Origin: Escherichia phage SP27
Reading direction: 5' to 3' (one strand)
Sequence record: LC494302.1
Length of the DNA stretch: 64,000 nucleotides
Part shown: positions 25,848 to 45,939 of the stretch, piece by piece
Layout of the letters: each line of letters opens with the position of its first letter
How positions within the stretch are numbered: the first letter of the stretch is position 1
Translations under genes and position numbers: made by a program
Notes under the pieces: model-generated
The model's input: the letters and a program-made list of their open reading frames with translations, nothing else
The model's database searches: none
What the model was told of the DNA's origin: nothing

Positions 25848-26045
25848 ATGCGTATTTTAACTAAAGAACAGCACCACGAAAGACTTATCAATAACATGGC
25901 TATGATAATGTATAAGTCCCATGACCGTGGTATTGCCTATAAGCGTGAATTAATTATGGCACTATTCATTGGAACTAACTTTCAGGAAAGGTATGTCAAC
26001 GATTGGATTTGGTATTTAATTGAAGATATAACGAGTAAACTATGA
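25848..26045 (+). CDS. hypothetical small protein, paralog family B
   Basis: motif FIGTNFQERYVNDWIWYLIEDI. Confidence 0.6.
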   Translation: MRILTKEQHHERLINNMAMIMYKSHDRGIAYKRELIMALFIGTNFQERYVNDWIWYLIEDITSKL

Positions 26046-26242
26046 AAATGCGTATTTTAAATAAAGAAGAATATCAATCACTGTTACGTAAAAACTTCAC
26101 AAAGATTTATAATACAGACACACACGTAGAACGAATGGAGTTATACCTTTTGATTACTTTGGGAACTAACTATCAGGAAAGATGGGTGATTCAATATATG
26201 GATACATTGAAAAATAAAATATTGTCCACGAGGAAACAATGA
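26042..26242 (+). CDS. hypothetical small protein, paralog family B
   Basis: motif LGTNYQERWV; ATGA overlap. Confidence 0.6.
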   Translation: MKMRILNKEEYQSLLRKNFTKIYNTDTHVERMELYLLITLGTNYQERWVIQYMDTLKNKILSTRKQ

Positions 26243-26448
26243 AAACTATAACACGAACCCAATCATACGGTCTTATCTTGAAATACATGGACTTAATGGT
26301 GGATATCAGCAAAGACCTTCCTAAAACTGAAATTGAAGTTGCAAGAGCAGAGATCCGCATGTTGGCTGTACTGAACACAAACCATCAGGAAGATTATGTT
26401 GAAGAATGGATTCGATTTTTAATTCAAGATATAAAGAGTAAATTATGA
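26239..26448 (+). CDS. hypothetical small protein, paralog family B
   Basis: motif LNTNHQEDYVEEWIRFLIQDI. Confidence 0.6.
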   Translation: MKTITRTQSYGLILKYMDLMVDISKDLPKTEIEVARAEIRMLAVLNTNHQEDYVEEWIRFLIQDIKSKL

Positions 26449-26657
26449 TTTTTTTAACACCAGAAGAATATAAGAAACGTTTCAATTCCGCACAGGGTGA
26501 AATCTTACTTATATACCTTTCAAATGCAGACCTTAACTTATCAAGGGTATTAGAAAAAGATTTACTTATGGGTGCATTCCTTGATACAGACTTTCAGGTG
26601 TATTATGTAGGGGAATACTTAATTGCACTCCAGAATTACATTAAGAGTAAACTATGA
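26445..26657 (+). CDS. hypothetical small protein, paralog family B
   Basis: motif LDTDFQVYYVGEYLIALQNYIKSKL. Confidence 0.6.
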   Translation: MIFLTPEEYKKRFNSAQGEILLIYLSNADLNLSRVLEKDLLMGAFLDTDFQVYYVGEYLIALQNYIKSKL

Positions 26658-26866
26658 ATAGCATTAACTCAAATCTATATACCGAACGCGTCGCGGCCAG
26701 ACAACTTGAAATTCTCATAGTATATGAAGAGACTGATGATTTAAACTTAGCATTAGTATTGGAAAATGATATACTATTGGGTGCATTCCTCGGCACAGAC
26801 TATCAGGAGCACTTCTTGAATGAGTATATAATTGCACTCCAGAAATACATTAAGAGCAAACTATGA
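26654..26866 (+). CDS. hypothetical small protein, paralog family B
   Basis: motif LGTDYQEHFLNEYIIALQKYIKSKL. Confidence 0.6.
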   Translation: MNSINSNLYTERVAARQLEILIVYEETDDLNLALVLENDILLGAFLGTDYQEHFLNEYIIALQKYIKSKL

Positions 26867-27081
26867 AACATTTAAGTAATTACGAGAAGAATAAAATTAT
26901 CGTTGCTGCAATAAACAAATATTTTACACTTCCTCACACAGAAGGTTTATGTGTAAGGGAACACAGGATAAACACCACCGATATACGCATGATGGCTGTA
27001 CTGGGGACGAACTTTCAGGAAGAGTATGTTGTTGCACACATAGTTGCCCTCACTGATCTAATAAGGGACAAATGTAAATGA
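26863..27081 (+). CDS. hypothetical small protein, paralog family B
   Basis: motif LGTNFQEEYV. Confidence 0.6.
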   Translation: MKHLSNYEKNKIIVAAINKYFTLPHTEGLCVREHRINTTDIRMMAVLGTNFQEEYVVAHIVALTDLIRDKCK

Positions 27082-27335
27082 AACACTTAACTGATGATGA
27101 ATTTGAAACTATAATTCGTAAACTAACCCCCATCACAAGGATAGTCTACGGTGACCCCAGCCTTACATGGAACCAAATGCGAGCTAAAGTTAATGAGCTA
27201 TGGTTGCTGTACTTTATGGGGACTCAATATCAAGATAAGTTTTGCACAGAATATATCGAACAATTAACGAATGTTATACAGGATAAACTAGATGATTATT
27301 TGCTCACAAAACATGAAGACTTTATCAGGAGTTGA
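27078..27335 (+). CDS. hypothetical small protein, paralog family B
   Basis: motif MGTQYQDKF. Confidence 0.6.
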   Translation: MKHLTDDEFETIIRKLTPITRIVYGDPSLTWNQMRAKVNELWLLYFMGTQYQDKFCTEYIEQLTNVIQDKLDDYLLTKHEDFIRS

Positions 27336-27564
27336 GTATCAAACTGCCCTATTCTCTTTAATCCATGCCCTTAGAAAAAACAATGCCTTATATGGTGCAC
27401 CTGAAGTGGATGTTATCAACGGTGAACTTTATCTTATGAAATTCATTGGAACAAACTATCAAGATCTGTTCATTCAACGATACTTATCAGCATTAAGAAA
27501 CCAAATCCAATATAAAACCATCAAGGCCAAAAAAGAATGGAATAAACAATGCGACACAGACTAA
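27313..27564 (+). CDS. hypothetical small protein, paralog family B
   Basis: motif IGTNYQDLF; start uncertain (track 27292, ATG 27313 also possible). Confidence 0.5.
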   Translation: MKTLSGVEYQTALFSLIHALRKNNALYGAPEVDVINGELYLMKFIGTNYQDLFIQRYLSALRNQIQYKTIKAKKEWNKQCDTD

Positions 27565-27797
27565 ATCACAAAATGTATTGTAAACTATTGCAGACATTGG
27601 CACAGAAACACTATGACACGGTATCTGGAATATTACCCTATGATATCATGCGTTTACTTCACTGTGAGGCCGAGATGCTTGTACTGATGACAGGCACTGA
27701 TAAAAACGCAATTGCCAAATCAATAGATATGTTCATCGAAGCACACTGCCAACACATGAGAACCGAAATCTGGAGGAAAGAGAATGATAATCCTTAA
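27549..27797 (+). CDS. hypothetical small protein, paralog family B (divergent)
   Basis: degenerate motif MTGTDKNAIAKSIDMFIEAH. Confidence 0.5.
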   Translation: MRHRLNHKMYCKLLQTLAQKHYDTVSGILPYDIMRLLHCEAEMLVLMTGTDKNAIAKSIDMFIEAHCQHMRTEIWRKENDNP

Positions 27798-27999
27798 TGA
27801 GTATCAGTATCATTGGAGGTTACAAACTATCAAATCAAAAGTGTATAGTATTGTGTTAAACAAATCTATTGCACAAGAGGACAAATGTGTTATAATAGCT
27901 GAAATGAAGTTGGGTGTATTCGTAGGGACAAACTATCAAAACATCTACACTGACGTATTGTTAAGTGCCTTACGTAACAAGGTGGTATCCAAAATATGA
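27784..27999 (+). CDS. hypothetical small protein, paralog family B
   Basis: motif VGTNYQNIY. Confidence 0.6.
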   Translation: MIILNEYQYHWRLQTIKSKVYSIVLNKSIAQEDKCVIIAEMKLGVFVGTNYQNIYTDVLLSALRNKVVSKI

Positions 28000-28214
28000 G
28001 AAATTTACAAGGCTTTGAATACATCAGACTCCTGAAAACATGTGGAAGCAGAAGGAGAATGATATCAAGCGATAAGAGCATCCAAGCTAACCTTAAGCAC
28101 GCACTAGTAACTGAACTCTATGTAGGTGCACTCTTAGGCACAAACTATCAACAAATGTATGTAGATCTATGGATTGACGCTCTACAGAAAGAGGTTAAAA
28201 GTAAATGCAAATGA
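27996..28214 (+). CDS. hypothetical small protein, paralog family B
   Basis: motif LGTNYQQMYV. Confidence 0.6.
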   Translation: MRNLQGFEYIRLLKTCGSRRRMISSDKSIQANLKHALVTELYVGALLGTNYQQMYVDLWIDALQKEVKSKCK

Positions 28215-28423
28215 TTAATTTAAGTAAAGACGAATTTTATGTTATACTGGCGAAAACTTATCCAGCACGTAAGGCCGTTTATGATAGTCACATTATTGAA
28301 CCCTCAAAGAAGTTGATTTTAGTAAATGAGATAAAGATGCTTTCAGTCTTAGGAACAAACTATCAAGAGAATGCTGTACTGATGTTAATTGATGCCCTCC
28401 AGAGAGAGGTTAAACGTAAATGA
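28205..28423 (+). CDS. hypothetical small protein, paralog family B
   Basis: motif LGTNYQENAV. Confidence 0.6.
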   Translation: MQMINLSKDEFYVILAKTYPARKAVYDSHIIEPSKKLILVNEIKMLSVLGTNYQENAVLMLIDALQREVKRK

Positions 28424-28650
28424 AAATGATTAATTTAACTTACCATGAATATCAAAAACGTTTAAATGCATCCAGAGATATAAGGATTCAAATATTCAAT
28501 AACAAAAAATTGAAACCTGATACCAGAAGAATCAAAATCATAGAAGCCGTGTTGTGTAACTTCCTAGGGACTAACTATCAGGAAGGTAAGGTAGAAAACT
28601 ATCTTATAGAACTCATGAATAGTATTGAAAATAAATGTAAGGGTAATTAA
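28420..28650 (+). CDS. hypothetical small protein, paralog family B
   Basis: motif LGTNYQEGKV; C-terminal ...SIENKCKGN. Confidence 0.6.
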   Translation: MKMINLTYHEYQKRLNASRDIRIQIFNNKKLKPDTRRIKIIEAVLCNFLGTNYQEGKVENYLIELMNSIENKCKGN

Positions 28651-28651
28651 C

Positions 28652-28891
28652 ATGAAAATGATTAAATTATCTCAAGCAAAATATAAAGAACGCCTGGTAA
28701 AAATTGCACCTGGACTTAATGAAATCCATCACGGAGAAGTCATTAAACACGGAAATAAGATGATTATGAAACTTGAGTTAAAGGTGGGTGCATTCATAGG
28801 AACAAACTATCAGGAGTATTATGTAGATGAATACATAATCGCACTTAAGAGATACATTGGAAGAAAACTATATCTACAAACTAAAGAATAG
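28652..28891 (+). CDS. hypothetical small protein, paralog family B
   Basis: start at ATG 28652 (MKMIKLSQ); motif IGTNYQEYYV. Confidence 0.6.
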   Translation: MKMIKLSQAKYKERLVKIAPGLNEIHHGEVIKHGNKMIMKLELKVGAFIGTNYQEYYVDEYIIALKRYIGRKLYLQTKE

Positions 28892-28920
28892 TATTGAAAA
28901 TAAATGTAAGGGTAATTAAC

Positions 28921-29184
28921 ATGCAAATGATCAATTTAAGTAAAGATGAATATACCGAGCGTATGACAAAAATTACGCACAAACGTAATACAATCTATCA
29001 CAACCCAGAAATTCAACACAGTAAGAAAATGATTATGATGCGTGAGTTAAAGATGGGTGTATTCTTAGGAACAAACTATCAAGATACAGAAGTAAATCGC
29101 TTAATCGCGGAGTTACTACTGGAAATCAGAGGTAAGCTGTACTTTCATCAAATGACCCAACCACTGAGGTGTACTGATCGATGA
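28921..29184 (+). CDS. hypothetical small protein, paralog family B (recent duplicate)
   Basis: start at ATG 28921 (MQMINLSKDEY); preceded by a 38-nt exact copy of the 28420 gene end. Confidence 0.6.
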   Translation: MQMINLSKDEYTERMTKITHKRNTIYHNPEIQHSKKMIMMRELKMGVFLGTNYQDTEVNRLIAELLLEIRGKLYFHQMTQPLRCTDR

Positions 29185-29432
29185 ATGCGATGAATATTGT
29201 GAATAACATCAGATTAGCAGAAAGATTTGATAGAATTGGGGAAGCACTGAGAAGATACGATAAAGAATATGGTCATTTGAGCTTTTCTATAGAAAAGAGA
29301 TATGAACTTGAAGCAGAGTTTAAAATGCAGAGTCTCTTAGGCACACAGTATCAAAACCAATATATTCAAACTTGGATTGATTGTTTAATCCAGACAATTT
29401 ACGTAAGAAACATTAAATGCAAAATGAAATGA
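29181..29432 (+). CDS. hypothetical small protein, paralog family B
   Basis: motif LGTQYQNQYI. Confidence 0.6.
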   Translation: MNAMNIVNNIRLAERFDRIGEALRRYDKEYGHLSFSIEKRYELEAEFKMQSLLGTQYQNQYIQTWIDCLIQTIYVRNIKCKMK

Positions 29433-29671
29433 TATACTTAACACATGATGAGTTAACAGAAAGACTAGATAAATCCAAAAGACTTACAAATAAACTTCCT
29501 CACAACACAAATCAAACCCCAGCAGAAAGGAGTGCAGAAGTTTTATTCCAAAGATTACCATACCTTCTTGGAACTGATAGGCAAGAGTATCACATTGAAC
29601 GTATAATTAAATATCTCAAAATTACTATTAAGGAAAAAGTAAATGCAAATGAAATACTTAACAGACGATGA
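29417..29671 (+). CDS. hypothetical small protein, paralog family B
   Basis: motif LGTDRQEYHIERIIKYLKITIKEK; close paralog of next gene. Confidence 0.6.
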   Translation: MQNEMIYLTHDELTERLDKSKRLTNKLPHNTNQTPAERSAEVLFQRLPYLLGTDRQEYHIERIIKYLKITIKEKVNANEILNRR

Positions 29672-29894
29672 GTTAAAAGAACGACTAATTAAATCCAGAA
29701 AACTTACAAATCAACTTCCAAACGACACAAACAAGTCACATGCCGAAAGGAGTGCAGAAGTTTTATACATTCAACTCATGTACTTTCTTGGCACTGACAG
29801 ACAAGAGTATTACATTGAAAGTATGCTTCGATATCTTAAATTCTCTATAAAGGAAAAGATACATGCTCAAGAATTTAAAAATCCTAACAGTTAA
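29643..29894 (+). CDS. hypothetical small protein, paralog family B
   Basis: motif LGTDRQEYYIESMLRYLKFSIKEK. Confidence 0.6.
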   Translation: MQMKYLTDDELKERLIKSRKLTNQLPNDTNKSHAERSAEVLYIQLMYFLGTDRQEYYIESMLRYLKFSIKEKIHAQEFKNPNS

Positions 29895-30105
29895 TGAATA
29901 TCATACGATTGTAATGAAAACTAATAGTGCAATTTCTAAAAAATCAAACCCCAAGTACATACTGGAACACACATTTGAAGAACGTCAATTAGCTTTAGTT
30001 GAAGCAAAACTTCTTGCACTCCTAGGGACTAACTATCAAGAAGAATACATCAGAAAACTAATATACCTTTTAACTAAACATATAAGAAAAAGAAAAAATG
30101 CATGA
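29863..30105 (+). CDS. hypothetical small protein, paralog family B
   Basis: motif LGTNYQEEYI. Confidence 0.6.
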   Translation: MLKNLKILTVNEYHTIVMKTNSAISKKSNPKYILEHTFEERQLALVEAKLLALLGTNYQEEYIRKLIYLLTKHIRKRKNA

Positions 30106-30332
30106 AACACTTGACAGATGATGAACATGGGCTTATAGTAATGGATGTAATCAACATCGAATACAAAAAGTTGATACGCTACCGTTGTTATGAAGATAAG
30201 CAACTCGTTCTAGCAGAACAGAAGTTGTTTCGACTCTTAAACACAAACTTCCAAGCACAATACGAAGAATCGTATATGTACCTTTTGGCGAGGAAAGCAA
30301 AAAGAGATTATGAAAATTTTAAGCAAAGGTGA
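30102..30332 (+). CDS. hypothetical small protein, paralog family B
   Basis: motif LNTNFQAQY. Confidence 0.55.
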   Translation: MKHLTDDEHGLIVMDVINIEYKKLIRYRCYEDKQLVLAEQKLFRLLNTNFQAQYEESYMYLLARKAKRDYENFKQR

Positions 30333-30525
30333 TTCAGTAATATTACTTATAGAGAGTTCAAGTAAATTCTTAAACATAACACTGTCTGATATAGATGAAG
30401 ATGACAAAGAAGTACTGAGAGCAGATTTAAGAGTACTGTTACATATCGGAACAAACCTACAAGAAGAATATGTAGAATGCTACATCAATGAACTTAAAGA
30501 ATCAGTACTGAGAAAATGCAAATGA
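30310..30525 (+). CDS. hypothetical small protein, paralog family B
   Basis: motif IGTNLQEEYV. Confidence 0.6.
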   Translation: MKILSKGDSVILLIESSSKFLNITLSDIDEDDKEVLRADLRVLLHIGTNLQEEYVECYINELKESVLRKCK

Positions 30526-30743
30526 AAATCATTACCGATGCAGAATACCTAACAATCATAAATGGACTGTTTTTGAAGCTCTTCGTCATTAACACATCAG
30601 ATATACCAGATATGGATAAAATTATTAAGAGAAATGAAGTCTATGTTCTAGCTACCCTTGGAACGAACTATCAAGAACACGACATTAAAGATTATATTAA
30701 TACACTTAAACGAGCGATTGAACTAAAATGCCAAAACCACTAG
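30516..30743 (+). CDS. hypothetical small protein, paralog family B
   Basis: motif LGTNYQEHDI. Confidence 0.6.
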   Translation: MQMKIITDAEYLTIINGLFLKLFVINTSDIPDMDKIIKRNEVYVLATLGTNYQEHDIKDYINTLKRAIELKCQNH

Positions 30744-30943
30744 GAACAGCAGAATACATTGAACTAATGGCATTACACTTCTCATCCTTTCAGAAACTTA
30801 GGCGAGAATCAAAGAATGATTTAGAATATACCATCAGAGGTTCCGATTTAAGAATGCTTCTCACCCTAGACACAGATTCCCAAGAGCGATTTGTCAATGA
30901 GCATATTAGAGCACTTTTAATGGAAATTCAAAGTAAACTATGA
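30728..30943 (+). CDS. hypothetical small protein, paralog family B
   Basis: motif LDTDSQERFV. Confidence 0.55.
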   Translation: MPKPLGTAEYIELMALHFSSFQKLRRESKNDLEYTIRGSDLRMLLTLDTDSQERFVNEHIRALLMEIQSKL

Positions 30944-31155
30944 AGATAATATCAAACCAAGAGTACTTGGCACTATTCAGGAAGAATAATCACAAATATA
31001 TGGCACTTGATTCAAGAACTGATATAAGTGAACTTGAAAAAAATCTTTTGCGTTCAGAGATGATAGTACTGACACTCTTAGGAACACAGCATCAAGAGAG
31101 AACTGTTAATTCACACATAGGTATTCTTATACAGATTGTACTGGAAAAGATATGA
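30940..31155 (+). CDS. hypothetical small protein, paralog family B
   Basis: motif LGTQHQERTV. Confidence 0.6.
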   Translation: MKIISNQEYLALFRKNNHKYMALDSRTDISELEKNLLRSEMIVLTLLGTQHQERTVNSHIGILIQIVLEKI

Positions 31156-31373
31156 GAATCATAACACAACAAGATATTCTTAAGTTCACAAGGGTTCATG
31201 CATCTGAATTTGATGCTATATTATCAAAAAGTTACAACAACCCTTATACAGAAGATGTACATTACAGTGAATTATGGATGTATATACTTTTAGGTACAAA
31301 TAAACAAGAGCAAGCAGTACAGAAGTATTTGACAGCTTTACGTGATGCTACTGCTAATGGAGTATGTGTTTAA
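31152..31373 (+). CDS. hypothetical small protein, paralog family B
   Basis: motif LGTNKQEQAV. Confidence 0.6.
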   Translation: MRIITQQDILKFTRVHASEFDAILSKSYNNPYTEDVHYSELWMYILLGTNKQEQAVQKYLTALRDATANGVCV

Positions 31374-31374
31374 T

Positions 31375-31617
31375 ATGAAAGTACTGACAGAACTAGAAAT
31401 GTATCATAGATTTAATAAGTACTATCATTTACTTAAGCCTATACAGAGGATTAAATGTCCATTTGAAGAGAAACAGGTTTTAATCTATGAGCACAAGTTC
31501 TTTGTATCATTAGGTACAGATCAACAAGAGTACTATTTGACGTTGTACTTGATTACATTAATAGATTTAATTCACTATAAAACAAAACAAGCTAATAAAG
31601 AGAAATATGAAAACTAA
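31375..31617 (+). CDS. hypothetical small protein, paralog family B
   Basis: start at ATG 31375 (MKVLTELEMY); motif LGTDQQEYYL. Confidence 0.55.
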   Translation: MKVLTELEMYHRFNKYYHLLKPIQRIKCPFEEKQVLIYEHKFFVSLGTDQQEYYLTLYLITLIDLIHYKTKQANKEKYEN

Positions 31618-31951
31618 TATACAACTCAAGGTATATAAATCATTTGAACATACATATATCAAAAGTAGTCTATGTAGAGATGTAATGGATTACAAGGGTA
31701 AGCCATTCACAATTACCTATGATTCTTATGTTAGTGATTTATATATATCATTTGTTAATTACGAAAATAAAATATACAAGCACGTTGATATTAAAGATTT
31801 AAGTACTTTATCTGAAGAGGAATACTTTCAGGAATCATTAGTATGGGATTTAGAGTTTCCTATGCCATTAGTACATAAGATGATAGTACTAATGAAAGAA
31901 TCTAAACAGGAGCCTAATGGTGATTATGAAGAACACACAGTTGAGTATTAA
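31607..31951 (+). CDS. hypothetical protein, paralog family C
   Basis: motif EEEYFQESLVWD. Confidence 0.6.
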   Translation: MKTNIQLKVYKSFEHTYIKSSLCRDVMDYKGKPFTITYDSYVSDLYISFVNYENKIYKHVDIKDLSTLSEEEYFQESLVWDLEFPMPLVHKMIVLMKESKQEPNGDYEEHTVEY

Positions 31952-32321
31952 AAGTACTGATAATATTAAGAGTTATACAAGCTCAAGTACTGTGACAATC
32001 GAAGTGAATTCTCTTAATGCTGGTAATACAGTAGATAAGTTCTTTATTGCTCAAGGGTACAGGAAAGATATTCATCAATATTGTTCAGTATATGGGGAGT
32101 ACAATAGTACTGAAGATATAATTTATTGGTCAACACATCAAGATTATCTAACTAAAATTGGCGTTCCAGATGTTAGTACTTTATCTGAAGAAGAATACTT
32201 TCAGTACAGCTTAGTACATGATTTACATATACCTTTAGGGTTAATCAAGGGTATGCAGGAAGAGGTTCATAAGCTTAAATCCATGAGTAAAGGTACTTTC
32301 ATTAGAACAGTGCAATACTAG
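31917..32321 (+). CDS. hypothetical protein, paralog family C
   Basis: motif EEEYFQYSLVHD; start uncertain (overlaps previous gene). Confidence 0.5.
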   Translation: MVIMKNTQLSIKSTDNIKSYTSSSTVTIEVNSLNAGNTVDKFFIAQGYRKDIHQYCSVYGEYNSTEDIIYWSTHQDYLTKIGVPDVSTLSEEEYFQYSLVHDLHIPLGLIKGMQEEVHKLKSMSKGTFIRTVQY

Positions 32322-45041: not shown

Positions 45042-45574
45042 GAAAAATTAACATTAATGATTATGATGCATTACAAGATTTATCAAAAAAGATTCGCACT
45101 ATCGTACCAGTACTGAAGAAATGCAGTACTGGATTAATCGATCCTAGTACTGTTGTTAATGAGAAGTACAATTTTCATTATGTATTACAGGGTACTGGGG
45201 CATTCCAGAAGTGTGAGGTGCGTGAGAAACACGTAATTGATACATCATTGTTTTCTATTGGTGCACCTATGTCGAATAATACTATTTTCCTGGATGACGC
45301 AGGAAATATTCAACAATTAACATTTAAGAAAAGGAAAAAGAACAATAACATTGGTGTGTACGCGATGAAGTGGGGTCAACCTGATTTGAAGCGTGAAATT
45401 CACATCCCTAAGTACAATTACAATTCATTTGAAGAACAGTGCTTTCAACTATCGTGTACTGACCCTGACTATGCTATCATTCAGTTCTATATGGAATTGC
45501 AGATAGCATTTAACAGTAATTTGTATATTAACTTATTGGCGATTAACATTGATGAAGTATTCAAAAACATTTAA
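45038..45574 (+). CDS. hypothetical protein, paralog family C
   Basis: motif EEQCFQLSCTDP. Confidence 0.5.
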   Translation: MRKININDYDALQDLSKKIRTIVPVLKKCSTGLIDPSTVVNEKYNFHYVLQGTGAFQKCEVREKHVIDTSLFSIGAPMSNNTIFLDDAGNIQQLTFKKRKKNNNIGVYAMKWGQPDLKREIHIPKYNYNSFEEQCFQLSCTDPDYAIIQFYMELQIAFNSNLYINLLAINIDEVFKNI

Positions 45575-45770
45575 TCGAATTGAATACATGAGAACTGTGA
45601 GTGCAGTGTGGGACATATGGTTCACTACTAAACCAAAAATGGATTACCATGACTTTAAGCTCTTGTTCTTCGTTGGCTCTAACAAACAGGATGTTGCAAT
45701 GAAGGGTTATATTCAGCACTTACAGGAACTAATCCAGAAGAGAATATATGAAAATAATAGACCAAAATGA
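45549..45770 (+). CDS. hypothetical small protein, family B-like, embedded in family C array
   Basis: FFVGSNKQDVAMKGYIQHLQELIQKRI resembles family B core. Confidence 0.5.
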   Translation: MMKYSKTFNRIEYMRTVSAVWDIWFTTKPKMDYHDFKLLFFVGSNKQDVAMKGYIQHLQELIQKRIYENNRPK

Positions 45771-45939
45771 CATTGCTAAACTATTCAATATATATTCTAC
45801 TAGAATGATGCAAACAGACTCATATAGTACTGAATTCAAAGAGTTGAAAGTACTGATGTACTTAGGAACCCAATACCAAGAACAAGTTATTTTAGAATAT
45901 ATTAATTCGTTGAAGAAGGATATCCGTTATGTACGATGA
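45748..45939 (+). CDS. hypothetical small protein, family B-like, embedded in family C array
   Basis: motif LGTQYQEQVILEYINSLKKDI. Confidence 0.55.
   Translation: MKIIDQNDIAKLFNIYSTRMMQTDSYSTEFKELKVLMYLGTQYQEQVILEYINSLKKDIRYVR

Follow-up and report, generated by a model that had tools for sequence, protein, structure and literature searches.

How does a string of 38 nucleotides come to stand twice, letter for letter, on either side of one small gene? The question is raised by a 64,000-nucleotide (nt) stretch of Escherichia phage SP27 (sequence record LC494302.1), hereafter the window, in which the 38-mer GAATAGTATTGAAAATAAATGTAAGGGTAATTAACATG occurs twice on the + strand within a tandem array of small paralogous genes. 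The source phage is a jumbo coliphage of the PBECO4/121Q type (genus Asteriusvirus). An initial annotation had taken the pair for the footprint of a very recent tandem duplication of one gene unit. Our analysis points to a different history: the repeat is probably an old scar, whose junction sequence has been kept identical by ongoing short-patch recombination and which mediates the precise loss of the unit that it brackets.

We call the gene starting at position 28420 A, the one at 28652 B and the one at 28921 C (Table 1). Direct comparison confirmed that the two strings are identical at both sites, and the match is maximal, as the next base already differs at both ends; the copies recur with a period of 269 nt. 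Their true starts, 28617 and 28886, lie 4 to 6 nt further right than the positions first given for them (about 28613 and about 28880). The 38-mer is the longest exact repeat within the gene array, longer ones being present elsewhere in the window, and 100 dinucleotide-preserving shuffles gave no match to it, even with three mismatches allowed. The reading frame through copy 1, from ATG AAT AGT to GGT AAT TAA, encodes MNSIENKCKGN and a stop, confirming that this copy specifies the C terminus of A (SIENKCKGN); one base after the TAA comes the ATG of B. Copy 2 had been placed just after the stop of B as a non-coding fossil in front of the next start. This is accurate for 29 nt (28892-28920), whereas its first six bases, GAA TAG (28886-28891), are the last codon and the stop of B and thus belong to the repeat; its last three bases are the ATG of C.

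Table 1. Coordinates, in the window, of the array, of the genes and repeats around the A–B–C region, and of related features.
Feature	Position	Strand	Remark
Tandem array of 26 small paralogous genes (65-91 amino acids), PHROG 4148, motif LGTNYQE	25848..31617	+	nearly all overlap stop/start
Single 26-mer AAATGCAAATGATTAATTTAAGTAAA, empty slot for B'	28203..28228	+	27996/28205 junction in the window
Gene A (76 amino acids), natural C-terminal tail ...NSIENKCKGN in copy 1	28420..28650	+	reading frame
38-mer copy 1	28617..28654	+	final base of an ATG codon, the last 10 codons of A, TAA, one base, Shine-Dalgarno (SD)-like AAGGG, ATG of B
Gene B (79 amino acids), extra unit, full-length PHROG-4148 member, sister of C	28652..28891	+	comparison with paralogs and relatives
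Breakpoint zone	28859..28885	+	identity to the tail of A 18/27
38-mer copy 2	28886..28923	+	ectopic copy of the tail of A: end of B, spacer, ATG of C
10-nt patch with all four differences between 38/38 and 34/38 long-type phages (TAAGGGTAATTAAC versus TGAGGTTGATGAAC)	28908..28917	+	flanks near-identical for hundreds of nt
Gene C (87 amino acids), sister paralog of B, longer tail ...GKLYFHQMTQPLRCTDR	28921..29184	+	paralog comparison
Hybrid gene in the GTD(R/K)Q sub-array: body of unit a and tail (KVNANEILNRR) of unit c	29417..29671	+	units are separate genes in UB

Which of the two copies is the original can be read from the family itself. The tail of A, ...NSIENKCKGN, aligns with the normal C terminus of the family (...KSKCK); therefore, copy 1 is the one in its native place and copy 2 the ectopic one. 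Within the window, B and C are each other's best paralog, with 48% amino acid identity over 75 residues, and B lacks the last ten codons of C, being terminated by the ectopic fragment of the tail of A. When the region is aligned to itself with the period of 269 nt, the match extends between about 28590/28859 and about 28815/29084, with 76% identity. Furthermore, among the 25 junctions of the array, 23 overlap by 4 to 44 nt and A and B are separated by 1 nt; the 29 nt between B and C are the only real spacer, and this spacer is copy 2 of the 38-mer. The relatives that we surveyed, GenBank phages together with phage contigs in whole-genome shotgun (WGS) assemblies, are of two types: a long one with A-B-C, and a short one with A-C that is exactly 269 nt shorter and has a single copy of the junction. 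These observations support the scar of a one-unit duplication or insertion, so that the proposal of unequal recombination duplicating one unit stands, apart from the words "very recent."

In the distant past, unequal or illegitimate recombination would have inserted one unit between A and C, a segment reaching from inside the coding tail of A to a point close to the 3' end of a C-like gene. From it would have come gene B, which is a sister of C cut short at its 3' end, and behind B an out-of-context tail of A that provides B with its stop and leaves the 29-nt spacer before C; B and C would afterwards have diverged to their present protein identity. This order of events is our inference. In the breakpoint zone, GGAAGAAAACTAT is B's own sequence, yet it matches the tail of A, GGTAGAAAACTAT, in the 269-nt register. 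We assign GGAAGAAAACTA, which matches the same tail, to B because the B-like gene of phage fEgEco12 (B', see below) has GGAAGTAAACTA at this place and diverges immediately after it. The 9 to 10 nt shared at AGAAAACTA may mark a microhomology-mediated junction, which is the simplest reading of the left edge.

The age of the duplication is where our analysis departs from the earlier view, according to which the 38-mer is identical for want of time to diverge. The exact 38-nt repeat with its period of 269, the ectopic tail of A after B and the sister relationship of B and C would all be expected after a recent event. The rest of the unit tells otherwise: B and C differ at 52% of their residues, with a synonymous divergence (dS) of 0.80 (proportion of synonymous differences, pS, 0.49) and a nonsynonymous divergence (dN) of 0.45, and the two 269-nt units are only 64% identical outside the 38-mer. 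They are therefore far from the near-identity over the full length by which a recent duplication would be recognized. A neutral stretch of 38 nt as old as the split of B and C would be expected to be about half diverged. Instead, a 65-nt alignment of the two junctions has nine mismatches, every one of them within its first 27 nt (P = 1.5e-4); permutation rarely yields 38 matches in a row in an alignment of 76% identity (P = 6e-4). Moreover, B is a fixed gene, kept at 96 to 100% amino acid identity in 19 GenBank records of phages isolated in Korea, Germany, the UK, Belgium, Poland, South Africa, Bangladesh, China, the Philippines, Turkey and Pakistan, and the exact B protein is found in 68 blocks of the assembly collection, including contigs of about 350 kb in bacterial WGS projects. 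Given this wide conservation and the divergence of B from C, the duplication predates the radiation of these phages. The remnant of the tail of A is present in every long-type phage. Many carriers of B have only 34 of the 38 positions in common between the two copies, full identity being confined to some lineages. A very recent duplication is thus highly improbable.

If the event is old, the perfect match of the two copies calls for another explanation, and the distribution of their states among long-type phages provides one. The copy after B and the copy after A are identical at 38/38 positions in the window, PBECO4, SD-2, SD-15, JP4, E9.1, BF17, ECO103 and two WGS contigs, at 37/38 in ELP-22, and at 34/38 in G17, slurp01, CRJP21, phAPEC6, SHEFM2K and three WGS contigs. 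In the 34/38 phages, the last 16 nt of the post-B copy have the form of allele 2 of the A–C junction. Among phages, this junction has at least three alleles: allele 1 is the 38-mer of the window, allele 2 is ...GATTTGTATCGAAAATAAATGTGAGGTTGATGAACATG and allele 3 is ...AAATGTGATGCTTTGGAGAATAAAAATG, and UE-S1 has yet another one. In IMG/VR, scans with the 22-nt core and with the remnant string met with no record but 121Q itself or with none at all, and neither the metagenome scan nor the complete E. coli assemblies gave a match.

The differences between the two classes of long-type phages are tightly clustered. Over the equivalent of window positions 28062-29115, PBECO4 (38/38) and G17 (34/38) are separated by two scattered single-nucleotide polymorphisms (SNPs) and by four that lie at 28908, 28912, 28914 and 28917. 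One state of this patch is that of the post-A copy, 269 nt away in the same genome; the other is that of the A–C junction of Ecwhy_1-type phages. A second boundary coincides with the repeat: G17 and slurp01 have A genes that differ by 11 SNPs, the last of them at 28614, directly at the left edge of the 38-mer. Differences packed so tightly, with the other state available at a paralogous or orthologous site, argue for short-tract recombination. Since full identity is restricted to certain lineages and the other phages have 34/38 with clustered differences, the identity of the 38-mer reflects later recombination or conversion and not the age of the duplication. The patch may stem from ectopic gene conversion, or from exchange of alleles with a co-infecting phage of the short type, whose single junction is homologous to both copies. 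We therefore envisage that the two copies of the junction, each consisting of a tail of A, a ribosome-binding site and an ATG, would be repeatedly overwritten in short patches by recombination, with sequence taken from the other copy, at a distance of 269 nt, or from the one "orthologous" junction of a B-less phage in the same cell. In the lineage of PBECO4, the SD phages and the window, such overwriting would have made both copies identical over 38 nt.

A side observation concerns the same place. Over 3 kb, ELP-22 and the window are 99.5% identical, yet ELP-22 has four changes clustered at the post-B junction (L016, about 860-940, corresponding to window 28859-28940). Two of them make the first codons of C identical to those of B (ATGAAAATGATTAA), which amounts to another local patch at the same spot.

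Could the 38-mer instead be a functional element, such as a site of translation initiation or coupling, a promoter or another regulatory site, that purifying selection maintains at both places? Its last 16 nt contain the SD-like AAGGG 8 nt before the ATG, and allele 2 keeps a GAGG at the same spacing. In addition, gene heads and junctions recur, together with the GTNYQ motif, as islands of nucleotide similarity across otherwise diverged paralogs, and these islands at heads and junctions may be due either to selection on translation initiation or to repeated conversion. For instance, the heads (about 26 nt) of the gene at 28205 (28205-28240) and of C (28921-28956) are identical at 25 of 26 positions, whereas the proteins share only 46% identity. 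Nevertheless, the orthologous A–C junction varies greatly, and alleles this different indicate that the sequence is not under strong constraint. The 5' 22 nt of copy 2 have no coding role beyond GAA TAG, and closely related genomes differ by one patch of four SNPs and not by scattered substitutions. Promoter-like matches are not enriched in the region (30, against 31.4 expected from shuffles, with one 9/12 match inside the 38-mer), the terminator scan of the region gave nothing above shuffles, and RNA folding of the two junctions was no better than that of shuffled sequences (z = +0.7 and +0.9). Selection on the whole repeat is thus an unlikely explanation of its identity.

Reading the 38-mer as an old scar overwritten by short-patch recombination also accounts for a further property, its apparent role in the loss of B. 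Phage UB (MH383160) belongs to the same species of the International Committee on Taxonomy of Viruses as PBECO4 and slurp01, and B is absent throughout its record, which lacks exactly B and one repeat (269 nt). Its junction consists of the tail of A, the 38-mer and the head of C, the exact product of recombination between the two copies. The left flank of UB (385 nt) is 100% identical to that of G17 and 99.7% identical to that of PBECO4, and its C gene is closest to that of G17 (98.8%); the other short-type phages have a left flank of 89 to 94% and a C of 77 to 97% identity. As B is far older than the split of UB and G17, UB must have lost it, through a deletion within its own genome or through the acquisition of a B-less junction. 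Among close relatives, the change in copy number that we see is a loss and not a gain. The 38-nt repeat would have been the substrate for this precise removal of B with one copy, UB then representing a biological deletion.

Perfect direct repeats that bracket a single gene could also arise by misassembly, or B could be a small mobile element flanked by a 38-nt target-site duplication. The same repeat structure is present in at least 24 independently assembled genomes, which excludes the concern that it is an assembly artifact. Moreover, the insert is one ordinary PHROG-4148 gene that has no Pfam domain and no transposase, integrase or endonuclease, with a modeled three-helix bundle like its neighbors, and the repeat is the coding tail of the upstream gene. 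Neither variant of this explanation is therefore credible in our eyes.

A second slot of the array behaves in the same way. In fEgEco12, WPEC3, EC.P1 and CMSTMSU, the B-like gene B' (82% nucleotide and 68 to 71% amino acid identity to B) lies two slots upstream, between the counterparts of the genes at 27996 and 28205. It is bracketed by two exact copies of the 26-mer AAATGCAAATGATTAATTTAAGTAAA with a period of 235 (L009, 1051-1076 and 1286-1311), whereas Ecwhy_1, J and the window have one copy and no B'. Ecwhy_1 and fEgEco12 share 97.0% average nucleotide identity (PMC13070987). Like B, B' ends by reading the remnant of the upstream gene's tail in a shifted frame (RNAND and stop). The B' slot is an independent second case in which a unit together with one repeat copy is present or absent, and the 235-nt indel, like the 269-nt one, is directly observed.

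B' also raises the possibility that a B-type cassette moved from another slot to the A–C junction by two unequal crossovers, one at the AGAAAACTA microhomology of the tails of B and A and one in the near-identical gene heads (ATGCAAATGAT.AATTTAAGTAAA). B' occupies a different slot in four phages, B and B' are homologous up to exactly GGAAG(A/T)AAACTA, which is also where the match to the tail of A starts, and the 28205 gene, B' and C have almost the same head (about 25 of 26 nt). Such a route requires two events in place of one. The closest relative of B in the window is still C, both having an unusual KLY(L/F)xQ tail, and only 7 of the 15 nt that separate the microhomology from the 38-mer agree with the tail of A. 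We consider this route to have a small but appreciable chance.

Several points weigh against an old in situ scar with later overwriting and should be set beside the evidence for it. The left breakpoint can be placed no more finely than 28862-28886, and the tail of B (GRKLYLQTKE and stop) resembles both the tail of A read in another frame (GRKLSYRTHE and stop) and GKLYFHQMT of C. The presence of a B-like gene in another slot in four phages means that B may have reached the A–C junction by two-step recombination and not by in situ duplication of C. Both forms of the patch also occur upstream of C in B-less phages, and local trees are mosaic; because of the former, the direction of patch transfer is ambiguous, and any direction that we assign to it would be inferential. 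Selection on the translation-initiation part of the repeat may contribute to its conservation. Finally, the loss in UB could in principle be a short circuit of a de Bruijn assembly (k below 38) at the 38-nt repeat. On balance, we still hold an old scar, homogenized by short patches and used for precise unit loss, to be the probable history of the locus, and ordinary recombination-driven birth, loss and homogenization in a phage gene array to be the most likely process behind it.

Turnover is also seen further along the array. The GTD(R/K)Q sub-array (window 29417-29894; about 2200-3200 in L001-L015, L024 and L025) consists of one to three tandem units drawn from four types, in combinations that vary by phage. 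One of its genes in the window is a hybrid of two units (Table 1). The genes at 29417 and 29643 had been described as near-identical in architecture; they are sister paralogs, but with only 62% amino acid and 76% nucleotide identity and a dS of 0.69.

The phenomenon is ordinary in kind: genes of a tandem family are born and lost by unequal recombination, DNA between short direct repeats is deleted, and concerted evolution acts locally. With tandem arrays that evolve by birth and death, the phage array shares the gain and loss of whole units, short direct repeats at unit boundaries, hybrid genes (such as that at 29417) and a fragment of the neighboring gene at a novel junction. It differs in that its units are tiny (about 220 to 270 nt) and translationally overlapped, that the repeats measure 26 to 38 nt and that the scar supplies the stop of the new gene. 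Classical studies of T4 rII and T7 reportedly dealt with laboratory deletions between short direct repeats, scored by selection. The precise loss of the DNA between the repeats along with one copy is the same in UB (269 nt) and in the B' slot (235 nt), whereas the evidence from the phage array is comparative and comes from natural isolates.

Concerted evolution by ectopic gene conversion is known, for example, from duplicated tuf or rRNA genes in bacteria. As there, a short tract of identity stands out in diverged DNA, and a clustered patch finds its alternative state 269 nt away in the same genome. In the phage array, however, the tract is tiny (10 to 400 nt or less) and lies on a junction and not on a gene body, and the pattern could equally be produced by allelic exchange with B-less phages infecting the same cell. 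Among viruses, the nearest analogy may be the "genomic accordions" of poxviruses and the homogenization of their arrays (vaccinia K3L; PMC6115191, PMC9973261), which likewise involve recombination-driven changes in copy number and variants that spread between copies. In those accordions, near-identical copies have been amplified recently, under strong selection in experiments (PMC6115191, PMC9973261). The phage paralogs, by contrast, are old (dS about 0.8), only their junction is homogenized, they are not known to be amplified adaptively or in response to a selective agent, and differences are seen between isolates only, so that the likeness would be one of function.

The locus provides a naturally replicated example of turnover in the tandem arrays of tiny genes of jumbo phages, in which units are added, lost and hybridized at exact repeats of 26 to 38 nt and junctions are homogenized while the genes diverge. 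A perfect short repeat in such an array is accordingly no sign of a recent duplication. Arrays of this kind are likely to be heterogeneous in lysates and prone to misassembly and misannotation, several GenBank records annotating fragments only. It is tempting to go further and to see in the array a recombination-built "cassette deck" of early host-takeover or anti-defense proteins, whose junction islands of 25 to 40 nt (tail, SD, head) serve as de facto recombination sites, so that co-infecting Asteriusviruses gain, lose, move and hybridize units of about 230 to 270 nt at high frequency. The deck would then be a phage counterpart of the poxvirus accordion, operating on diverged and not on identical copies. 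We offer this reading as speculation, with the odds clearly against it. If the array does encode host-takeover or anti-defense proteins, its turnover would be a source of differences in repertoire between therapeutic-candidate phages that are 95 to 99% identical.

Around the repeat, a region of 3 kb has matches in 34 phage records, with BAU.Micro_ELP-22 closest at 99.5%, and by tblastn the PHROG-4148 family is confined to 35 Asteriusvirus-like records. The array genes are assigned to PHROG 4148, of unknown function, with E-values of 1e-20 to 1e-27. A Pfam search of their proteins gave no real match (best 15 bits, against a cutoff of 27), and a sequence-profile search of the PDB reached only E = 0.15. 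AlphaFold2, run on an alignment of 27 paralogs from the window, predicts a three-helix bundle for B (predicted local distance difference test score, 96.4). Searched with Foldseek, this model met nothing with an E-value below 4 in the PDB, and its matches in BFVD were members of the same family from Asteriusvirus only. In fEgEco12 and ELP-22, the array lies at about 22 to 26 kb, just inside the left direct terminal repeat, which in fEgEco12 has been reported to measure roughly 21 kb (PMC13070987). The array of the window is likewise placed just inside the left terminal repeat. Our literature search found no published description of this PHROG-4148 array.

Some candidate readings of the locus were rejected. 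One was a programmed frameshift by which translation of B would continue in the +1 frame that is open in the remnant (EENYIYKLKNSIENKCKGN and stop); there is no slippery heptamer or known +1 site at 28859-28870, and an open +1 frame of 20 codons is not significant in AT-rich DNA. The TTG-start extensions at 28625 and 28894 proposed by the open reading frame (ORF) finder do not match the N termini of the family.

Annotation of the array is patchy and inconsistent in the GenBank records of PBECO4, UB, CMSTMSU and UE-S1 (L003, L004, L005 and L011), which have 8 to 11 annotated coding sequences, some of them truncated fragments, over about 3.5 kb with about 16 family genes. Two more family members (72 and 63 amino acids) lie at 45552-45939 of the window, about 14 kb downstream of the main array. 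Directly after the array, at 31607-32321, two overlapping ORFs of 114 and 134 amino acids have the motif D(L/V)STLSEEEYFQ(E/Y)SLV.DL in common, which suggests the start of a second paralog family. Upstream, the segment 6300-24300 contains many exact repeats of 27 to 63 nt (for example, 19117/22112, 19017/22007/24265, 6924/7602, 19596/19867, 23015/23990 and 6490/7628). They resemble promoter cassettes, AGTACTTGCAA-N17-GTATAATGTTTTACAT or TTGACT...TATTAT, followed by GC-rich hairpins GGGGA...TCCCC, and are probably a family of early promoters and terminators in or beside the terminal-repeat region.

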